Source: a bacterium
GTDB taxonomy: Archaea > Thermoplasmatota > E2 > JACPAO01 > JAHFTW01
NCBI GenBank assembly: GCA_040390065.1
Contig: JAZJZE010000009.1
Location: 160,001 to 224,000 of the forward strand
Direction of reading: 5' to 3'
Length of the DNA stretch: 64,000 nt
Shown: piece by piece, positions 58,186 through 59,450 of the stretch
How positions within the stretch are numbered: position 1 is the first letter of the stretch
How the letters are laid out: every line of letters starts with the position of its first letter
Translations under genes and position numbers: made by a program
The notes under the pieces: model-generated
Told to the model about the DNA's origin: nothing
The model's database searches: none
The model's input: the letters and a program-made list of their open reading frames with translations, nothing else

Positions 58186-58304
58186 CTACGCGCCCTTCAG
58201 CAGGTTGTTCGCGATGACCCCGCGGCCCGGCAAGCCGAGCCGCAGGGATTCCGCGGCCGAGCCGGCGGCATCGCGACCAATTCTCTGCGGGCGACTCGCT
58301 TCGC
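58186..58304. mobile_element. Mini-element at the acyl-CoA dehydrogenase 3' end (34-bp recoded duplicate, 85-bp insert with antisense block)
   Basis: 58186-58219 and 58305-58338 both encode [14 protein letters not shown] with different synonymous codons; inverted block at 58269-58281. Confidence 0.7.
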
Positions 58305-59450
58305 TCATGCGCCCTTGAGAAGATTGTTCGCGATGACCATCCTCTGGATCTCGCTCGTCCCCTCGTAGATCTCCGTGATCTTGGCGTCACGGAAGGCCCG
58401 CTCGACGGGGTAATCCTTCGTGTAGCCGTTGCCGCCGTGCACCTGGACGGCCTCCGTCGCAGTCCACATCGCCGTCTCCGAGGCGTACACCTTGGCCATG
58501 GAGGCCTCCTTGGAGTACGGCTTCTTCTCGTCCTTGAGGCGGGCTGCGCGATGGATGAGAAGGCGGGCGGCGTCGATGCGCGTCGCCATGTCGGCGATCT
58601 TCCATTGGATGGCCTGGTTGGAGCCGATGGGTTTGCCGAATTGGCGCCGCTGCTGCGCGTACGACAGGCTGGCCTCGTAGGCCCCGACGGCGATGCCGAG
58701 GGCTTGGCTTGCGATGCCGAGACGGCCGCCGTCGAGCGTCTTCATGGCGACCTTGAAGCCCTCGCCGACGGGCCCGAGGACGTTCTCGTCCGGCACCTGC
58801 ACGTTTTCGAAGAACAGCGGACAGCAGGGCGCGGCGCGGATGCCGAGTTTGTCCTCGGGTTTGCCGATGCGGAAACCGGGCGTGCCCTTCTCCACGAGGA
58901 ACGCGGTCTGGCCCTTGTGCCCGGCCGCCTTGTCCGTCTGGGCGAAGACGACGTACGTCTCGGCGAGTCCCGCATTCGTGATGAAGAGTTTCTGGCCGTT
59001 GAGGACGTAGCCGCGGCCGCTCTTGGTGGCCGTCGTCTGCATCGACACCACGTCGCTGCCGGCGTTGGGTTCCGTGAGTCCGTACGCGCCGAGCTTGCGG
59101 CCGGCGAGCATGGGCTTGAGGAAGCGTTCATGCTGGTCCGCGTTGCCGTACGTGTAGAGGGGCCAGCCGGACAAGGAATTGTTGACGGAGACGATGACGC
59201 CGGTCGAGGCGCAGACGCGCGACAGCTCCTCGATGGCGATGCAGTACGACACCATGTCCGTGCCCGCGCCGCCGGCCTCTTCGGGGAAATTCATTCCCAT
59301 GATGCCGAGGGCGCCAAGCTCGTGCGCCAACTCGGGTGGCCACCGGTGGGTCTCGTCCATCTCCTTGGCGATGGGGCGCAAGCGGCGCTCGGCGAACTCC
59401 CGCACGGTCTGGCGGATGAGGGCGTGCTCCGAGGTGGGCTCCAGGTCCAC
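58305..59450 (-). CDS. Acyl-CoA dehydrogenase
   Basis: [32 protein letters not shown] and [10 protein letters not shown] motifs. Confidence 0.95.

Follow-up and report, generated by a model that had tools for sequence, protein, structure and literature searches.

Duplicated end of an acyl-CoA dehydrogenase gene

The DNA stretch analysed here (the window) comprises 64,000 nt of contig C9 of G000, a Thermoplasmatota metagenome bin of 2.68 Mb that is 89% complete. On its minus strand lies a gene for an acyl-CoA dehydrogenase (ACAD), identified by matches to PF02771, PF02770 and PF00441 (E values from 6e-38 to 4e-57), and the 3' end of this gene is present twice (Table 1). The in-use copy, A1, reads GTC ATC GCG AAC AAT CTT CTC AAG GGC GCA TGA (58337-58305), and the displaced copy, A2, reads GTC ATC GCG AAC AAC CTG CTG AAG GGC GCG TAG (58218-58186). 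The two are spaced 119 nt apart, with A2 out of frame relative to A1, and a repeat search recovered them as a direct repeat (D1, 58190-58219 and 58309-58338, 90% identical over 30 nt at the same spacing). They share 27 of 33 bases; the six differences consist of four synonymous third positions (T/C, T/G, C/G and A/G, in the order A1/A2) and TGA versus TAG. A preliminary description of the locus had noted that the last 10 codons and the stop occur twice with an identical peptide and changed codons, and that the displaced copy is richer in G/C third positions. Both points hold, as each of the six differences is either synonymous or part of the stop codon, and the last six sense codons end in G or C in 6/6 cases in A2 against 3/6 in A1. 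The starts given at the time, 58338 and 58219, were each one base too high and are corrected here to 58337 and 58218.

The 86 nt between A1 and A2 contain no open reading frame (ORF). A stretch of 127 nt, reaching from the end of the gene to its second copy, forms three hairpins, with -39.3 kcal/mol as DNA (z -3.26, equalled by 0/200 shuffles). In hairpin 1 the gene end is paired with an antisense block, A', around the tip GAGCGAAGCGA; the motif CTCGCTTCGC found on the plus strand at 58295-58304 is the reverse complement of this hairpin tip, GCGAAGCGAG. The pairing is imperfect. One inverted repeat (I2) sets 58269-58286 against 58318-58335 in the in-use copy, 83% complementary over 18 nt, and another (I1) sets 58263-58280 against the displaced copy, also at 83%, so that the two ungapped pairings are equal. 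When gaps are allowed, 20/25 aligned bases match over CATCGCGAACAATCTTCTCAAGGGCG, which covers about 27 nt of the in-use end (z = 5.3, 200 shuffles). The reverse-complement block of 13 nt described earlier is thus present, while its extent had to be revised, since it belongs to an imperfect hairpin arm of about 27 nt that covaries with the in-use copy. The insert keeps ACAD whole and has shifted the native end 119 nt downstream. We consider it fairly likely that 58219-58337 is one unit, 119 nt long, of a strand-specific and gene-less mini-element integrated in the last 33 nt of ACAD, and the right part of A1 is read as borne by the element.

Table 1. Features of the ACAD locus (coordinates of the window)
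Feature	Position	Strand	Description	Evidence
ACAD	58305..59450	-	Target gene, acyl-CoA dehydrogenase, 381 aa	ORF, Pfam domains
A1	58305..58337	-	In-use copy, last 10 codons and TGA, GTCATCGCGAACAATCTTCTCAAGGGCGCATGA; also 5' arm of hairpin 1	Sequence match, repeat search
Tip	58296..58306	-	Hairpin tip GAGCGAAGCGA; holds the GCGNAGC mini-hairpin motif at 58304-58298; overlaps GA of the stop codon	
A'	58269..58295	-	Pairs imperfectly with the in-use gene end as its reverse complement; 3' arm of hairpin 1	z 5.3, I2, compensatory pairs
Hairpin 2	58251..58268	-	Small middle module, CCGCCGGCTCGGCCGCGG	Fold
Hairpin 3	58219..58247	-	CCCTGCGGCTCGGC-TTGC-CGGGCCGCGGGG; stem of 13 bp, loop TTGC, two T-G pairs on the minus strand; 3' arm abuts the displaced copy	
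A2	58186..58218	-	Displaced copy, last 10 codons and TAG, GTCATCGCGAACAACCTGCTGAAGGGCGCGTAG; native-type codons; continues into native downstream flank	

Inserts of the same layout in the genome and its relatives

The ACAD insert is a member of a family with shared modules, whose design recurs, with other targets, at dozens of ends of tRNA and protein genes, both here and in other genomes of the same taxonomic family. The program aragorn gave 52 tRNA genes, of which 51 were scanned, one that crosses a contig start being skipped. A copy of the last 20 nt (at most 3 mismatches) lies 96-203 nt downstream of 19/51 tRNA genes, and a copy of the first 20 nt lies 120-416 nt upstream of 9/51; elements at gene 3' ends and at gene 5' ends are called 3'-type and 5'-type below. 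Most of the 17 tRNA 3' cases inspected have a common order: target end, hairpin tipped by GCGNAGC, imperfect target antisense, middle hairpin, strong GC-rich hairpin abutting the second target copy, and that copy itself. The second tRNA copies begin in the T-loop or T-stem, where the left boundaries cluster. For protein genes, 3067 ORFs of at least 120 aa and with a third-position G+C content of at least 0.78 were scanned, and in 18 the last nine residues and the stop are encoded again 20-320 nt downstream, against 0/3067 for the reverse complement of the same flanks. Complementarity between A and A' reaches a z of at least 2.5 over shuffles in 20/24 elements scored. The genome-wide scan for repeated gene and tRNA 3' ends that had been suggested for this locus was therefore positive, and the antisense blocks of most scored elements stand above shuffles. 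The duplicated target length ranges from 15 to 78 nt across elements, and tandem arrays of 2-3 units are common.

The tip motif GAGCGNAGCGA has 69 copies in the genome, compared with 21 for the reversed control, and a similar excess was found across the family. It often lies directly 3' of a tRNA or protein gene end, as the loop of a hairpin of which the end of the gene is the 5' arm. There is also a second family, with three hairpins and a nearly constant sequence (29 copies of a 21-nt core), often flanked by target copies of 26-77 nt. Lengths of 103-166 nt and target-specific arms made the family of the ACAD insert unfit for MAFFT alignment; its spread beyond the order was therefore gauged by the tip motif only. 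A loose regular expression for the middle module matched coding sequence only, missed real copies and was dropped.

Comparison of the duplicated protein ends is informative about their history. Synonymous changes make up 6/6 of the differences at ACAD, 8/8 at C1:400571, 7/8 at C5:87250, 3/3 at C5:78736, 2/2 at C9:577507, 9/9 at C3:89854 (including a serine switch from TCG to AGC) and 7/10 at C1:326695. Pooled over these seven clean loci, 42/46 differences are synonymous; when all 18 ORF matches are taken, among them decayed and doubtful ones, 51 synonymous differences and 25 non-synonymous ones are counted in their last 30 nt. In a functionless, drifting copy mostly non-synonymous changes are expected. 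As the copies differ almost only synonymously, each has evolved as a working gene end, and the two copies are most simply read as ends of the gene that come from different lineages and were united by the insert.

Occupancy of the sites is patchy among close relatives, and one site can hold unrelated bodies in different genomes. The ACAD duplication is present in 5/38 genomes of the order, with 0 control matches: G000, G001, G006 and G011 of its own genus and G013 of another genus. These carriers are scattered in the ACAD gene tree. Among the four congeneric carriers, three are sister to a non-carrier (G000/G004, G001/G009 and G011/G003), G006 being in an unresolved part of the tree, and empty ACAD sites are present in congeners. 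In G011 the displaced end, KGT*, is as the native end of its sister G003, and the in-use end, KGS*, is as in G002, which belongs to another lineage. G006 has two tandem units, with the markers GCG...CTC in the first copy, GCC...CTC in the internal copy and GCC...CTG in the last; this third copy is decayed and runs into the flank found after the stop codon at the empty site of G005. The copies of G006 are reciprocal chimeras: their left and right markers have changed partners in the way a crossover would produce, with the exchange falling between positions 10 and 20 of the shared block. Together, the empty sites of congeners, the end match of G011 to its sister and the chimeras of G006 uphold the earlier claim of an insertion with a replacement 3' end. 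A metagenome scan with the gene end and tip gave one contig of 1082 nt, which begins inside another tandem array at the ACAD end and offers no wider context.

Four units could be aligned (G000, two from G006, and G011), and RNAalifold predicted 36 pairs in them, 11 with compensatory changes. Four compensatory pairs link third codon positions of the in-use copy to A' (AAT/ATT, CTT/its partner, CTG/CAG and GCC/GGC). The A/A' pairing is maintained by compensatory changes. The tRNA-Phe gene of the window (35495-35568) has a match in 11 congeneric genomes, G000 included. A downstream copy of the tRNA end is present in 6/11, with bodies that are unlike one another by eye, unaligned; in 3/11 the tRNA leads directly into the conserved downstream gene or flank, and 2/11 have other hairpins and no copy.

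The strand that folds is related to the gene in a regular way. Among 3'-type elements the gene-sense strand folds better in 22/24 with DNA parameters (mean difference -5.05 kcal/mol, Wilcoxon 3.6e-5) and in 21/24 with RNA parameters. At 300 ordinary gene ends used as control, the difference averages -0.06, with better folding of the sense strand in 155/300. Mispairs in the A/A' hairpin 1 are 23 G-T on the element (sense) strand versus 7 on the other. The 5'-type elements show the reverse: it is the tRNA-antisense strand that folds better in 8/8, and GCGNAGC is confined to this folding strand in 7/8. Read 5' to 3', the strand selected to fold always leads away from the gene body, which argues against a role in the transcript of the host gene and for a single-stranded form of the element. 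According to the sections available of a 2026 review (PMC13037366), GCGNAGC forms a DNA mini-hairpin of extraordinary stability, far above that of its RNA counterpart, and is found at sites of single-strand DNA priming, among them the phage G4 origin, ssiA and the N4 promoters. The tip therefore favours DNA as the active form, without proving it. The previous suggestion of a single-stranded DNA hairpin substrate agrees with the strand asymmetry, while no enzyme for it was found.

Other units and repeats were observed beside these elements. Two further elements lie in the window: a 108-nt unit behind tRNA-Phe (35382-35568) and a 203-nt insert behind tRNA-Met (25339-25616), the latter consisting of two constant-sequence family units. 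Behind tRNA-Pro(CGG), at C9:314700-315210, which is partly N, and behind tRNA-Glu(CTC), at C11:195307-195800, three to five different mini-units are piled up. Outside the window, C9:136524-137167 is a 643-nt insert at a protein-gene end with a cassette-like layout, composed of one constant-family hairpin unit and a 129-aa ORF; this ORF (CxxCxxxxC motif) has no paralogue and matched no family at the curated cut-off. The spacer downstream of ACAD, about 550 nt, is dense in repeats. Some 130 nt downstream of A2, at 57900-58060 on the minus strand, there is a separate non-coding repeat of about 170 nt, also with GAGCGNAGCGA, of which eight copies were observed in the genome (C8:10488; C9:71460, 85145, 218016, 266007, 270886, 329853 and 519498). 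A long hairpin at 57815-57914 gave microRNA-precursor-like Rfam matches (best 30.1 bits, E 2e-4, below gathering), and beside it, at 57730-57800, lies an inverted array of CACTGAAC-like units.

A candidate integrative mini-element and its rivals

The explanation that we favour, with reasonable but far from full confidence, is an integrative mini-element that is non-autonomous and strand-specific and carries in a new end for the gene it enters. The modules of the unit follow a fixed order: A, then a loop with the GCGNAGC tip, an imperfect A', hairpin 2, and last hairpin 3, which abuts the displaced copy. Entry would occur by exchange within the shared block with a circular or tandem donor, either as a reciprocal crossover or by copy-choice on such a donor. 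Either route would leave an in-use copy that is native on the left and element-derived on the right, and a displaced copy that is element-derived on the left and native on the right. The exchange point would be inside A, beside the foot of hairpin 3. The active form may be a folded single strand, most likely DNA, in which the A/A' hairpin stacked on hairpin 3 would make a pseudo-duplex that mimics the double-stranded target, with a continuous strand crossing the exchange point, in the manner of integron attC sites and of the attachment site of CTX phage. The enzyme would act in trans, the likeliest candidate being a tyrosine recombinase of the kind that places genuine islands in the same tRNA segment. 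The same products, and tandem arrays besides, would come from rolling-circle copy-choice templated by the complementary circle. The simultaneous rewriting of A and A' for a new target is accounted for by neither the crossover nor the copy-choice model.

Six tyrosine recombinases (PF00589) are encoded in the genome, 0/6 of them on C9. This corroborates the statement that no recombinase is encoded nearby, and the label non-autonomous also stands, with neither an ORF in the 86 nt nor a recombinase on the contig. A genuine island is found at C4:105117-117860 of G000, where 12.5 kb encoding a tyrosine recombinase follow tRNA-Lys(CTT). An older mini-element of 138 nt, with a third copy of the tRNA-Lys end, lies beyond the right repeat of the island, and the island is bounded by the same segment, from the T-loop to the 3' end, as this adjoining mini-element. 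The main reason for favouring a tyrosine recombinase in trans is this use of the same attachment segment by islands and mini-elements. The island ends carry none of the mini-element modules, so that the mini-elements are not its deletion products. Wider spacings of end copies were also observed, one of 28.9 kb at a protein-gene end (C1:159479) and one of 92 kb at tRNA-Val(GAC) (C11:33996-126106), the latter interval with a tyrosine recombinase at C11:123092-124492; both are probably large integrated elements.

Several points weigh against this explanation. No enzyme is tied to the mini-elements. Searches of the 89% complete genome for four families, Y1 HUH transposase, IS110 DEDD transposase, TnpB and reverse transcriptase, gave 0 matches each, and five of the six tyrosine recombinases were scanned (the sixth holds masked letters) and found to be Xer-like, below the XerA and integron-integrase cut-offs (best TIGR02249 score 41.9 bits, cut-off 265). 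A 119-bp double-stranded circle is a poor substrate for recombination, and the products observed are equally compatible with plain homologous recombination between relatives. A sequence search of the genome with a 196-nt stretch of the locus found no second copy, only chance matches (E >= 0.24); as the insert sequence is single-copy, the ACAD unit is documented only as present at the same locus in other species and not as moving between loci. Some 3 of the 18 ORF matches are weak or reflect repeats inside the protein. G013 has an in-use end, LLR*, like the native end of its congener, and a displaced end, LLK*, that is not, a reverse polarity from which it follows that the crossover point or polarity is not uniform. 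RNA and DNA forms are indistinguishable from the present data. Finally, no excised or empty form was seen among the read data, the locus being found only in the contigs of the source run: of the four sequencing runs compared, one gave a contig (probable source run) that spans 58095-58650 with no joint over the 119 nt, these data being contigs only and uninformative on excision or expression, and the other runs matched ACAD genes of other organisms; no RNA data set is listed as containing the locus.

Among the alternatives, the one to be taken most seriously, although we think it rather improbable, needs no dedicated machinery: the A-body-A structure would have arisen once per locus, by slippage or a switch of template during replication at a gene end, and spread among related lineages by homologous recombination of taken-up DNA, with arrays formed by unequal crossing-over. 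A double crossover of a linear A-body-A fragment gives the same chimeric products and pure internal units as those seen, and the wide variation of the duplicated length, the frequent arrays and the missing enzyme are all as this view would have them. It leaves unexplained, however, why the same modules (tip, hairpin 2, and hairpin 3 at the junction) recur at more than 20 unrelated targets and why the same tRNA-Phe segment holds bodies that differ by eye between genomes, and the clustering of left boundaries in the T-loop and T-stem and the strong strand-specific folding asymmetry also oppose it. The insert is unlikely to be a deletion remnant of a large integrase island, with attL and attR left nearly back to back. 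Genuine islands do use the same kind of site, as seen in the 12.5-kb tRNA-Lys island and the 28.9-kb spacing of protein-gene end copies, but the ends of that island lack the mini-element modules, and about 40 loci have the same compact three-hairpin layout at similar size. No larger form at the ACAD site was found in 38 genomes of the order with a pattern that allowed a gap of 60-200 nt only, nor in the one metagenome contig, and a scan of viral contigs for the ACAD gene end gave 0 matches.

A structured 3' RNA of the host, such as a terminator, stabiliser or attenuator, formed by immobile local duplication and with the antisense block pairing alternately, is given the same low probability as an island remnant. 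The block is indeed 83% complementary to both copies (I1 and I2), a classic layout for alternative pairing, the 3'-type elements fold on the transcribed sense strand, and compensatory changes keep the pairing. Against this stand the 5'-type elements, which fold antisense to the tRNA in 8/8, the sister genomes without the insert, and the second copy, which retains a full synonymous frame and stop that pairing does not need; moreover, the Rfam 15 covariance models gave no match within 58186-58345 at E <= 1. Transposition directed by a guide (an IS110 bridge RNA, or a TnpB/IscB or IS200/IS605 guide) would account for a sequence within the element that is complementary to its own target, and is more doubtful still: DEDD IS110, TnpB and Y1 have 0 matches in the genome, and such systems do not duplicate 17-78 nt of target, their guides being far shorter. 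The RNA-guide role first proposed for the antisense block thus finds no partner, as no IS110, TnpB or reverse transcriptase was detected. That the assembly joined two strain variants of the gene end in tandem is hardly credible. The genome is a metagenome bin and the differences between copies resemble strain-level synonymous variation, but the 86 nt between them are structured and pair with the gene end, and the same layout is present in four other species-level genomes, a separate metagenome contig and dozens of loci. Three further candidates were ruled out by eye: an archaeal bulge-helix-bulge intron, as there is no complementary splice-site helix; a C/D box sRNA, as there are no C or D boxes (compare the portion available of PMC6009581); and a casposon, as there are no terminal inverted repeats, Cas1 not having been searched for.

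Relation to known systems and significance

An integrative mini-element of this kind resembles site-specific integrative elements in gene ends, where direct repeats of the end flank the insert, a replacement end is supplied and relatives have empty sites. As in tRNA-targeting islands, the crossover segment extends between T-loop and 3' end, which is also the case of the 12.5-kb island in this genome. It is unlike them in its size of 100-230 nt, in having no genes and no integrase inside, in its conserved three-hairpin body with a target antisense and a strand-specific fold, and in the occupation of more than 35 different targets in one 2.7-Mb genome. Gene-less derivatives of integrative elements, such as the cis-mobilisable elements (CIMEs) of Streptococcus, are also among the nearest known kinds. 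In the part of PMC9897764 that is available, archaeal tRNA fragments are attributed only to elements of 9-23 kb.

Integron attC and CTX phage attP(+) sites are folded single-stranded hairpins recombined by tyrosine recombinases (PMC5027507, PMC2095811, PMC3442271 and PMC3089051). So far as the accessible parts of these sources go, the mini-elements share with them an imperfect one-strand hairpin, an A, x, A', y, A arrangement once integrated, tandem arrays and possibly duplex mimicry. They differ from attC and CTX sites in that the arms copy the target of each element, with no common core, and in that the targets are gene ends and not attI or dif; no integron integrase was found among the five recombinases scanned, and the single-stranded DNA form is inferred here. 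Unpaired hairpin positions recur in tRNA-targeted copies, although not strictly.

Small gene-less hairpin inserts at gene ends, tolerated by the host, are also known as REP/REPIN-RAYT, IS200/IS605 PATEs, MITEs (miniature inverted-repeat transposable elements) and Rickettsia palindromic elements. Unlike all of these, the present inserts come with no detected Y1 transposase, their target copies are long and of variable length, and their bodies are not identical repeats. Of the features of MITEs, terminal inverted repeats were absent, the repeat search giving only internal hairpins, and the duplication length is not fixed. As for diversity-generating retroelements, there were 0 reverse transcriptase matches and the differences between copies are not adenine-specific. 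The 178-bp repeats distal to tyrT of E. coli (rtT) each end with the last ~19 nt of tRNA-Tyr, and are alike in being tandem units behind a tRNA gene that re-copy its 3' end. They are a single bacterial locus of unexplained mechanism, whereas the inserts described here form a genome-wide family that extends to protein genes and 5' ends. Our literature search, supplements being outside its scope, returned no account of hairpin inserts of ~100 nt that mimic their target at the ends of archaeal genes.

It is possible, and we advance it only tentatively, that these inserts are a new class of mobile DNA: gene-less elements of about 120 nt, single-stranded, in which a target/antisense hairpin and a junction hairpin imitate the target, and which are exchanged or copied by a host enzyme or one acting in trans. 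In such a class, target specificity would be written in the element itself, because the hairpin pairs a target copy with an antisense copy, and essential genes and tRNAs of many archaea could be occupied, because a working replacement end is brought along.

If the inserts are mobile, about 40 gene ends of a 2.7-Mb archaeal genome, including more than one third of its tRNA genes, carry elements that are invisible to standard annotation. The partial copies of tRNAs and gene ends derived from the inserts mislead gene callers, and the inserts show that gene termini pass between lineages in blocks of 30-80 nt. If the hairpin sets the insertion site, this would be a compact, sequence-encoded form of target recognition without a guide RNA gene. 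If there is no dedicated enzyme, the family would still be a clear natural case of insertion driven by homology or copy-choice.

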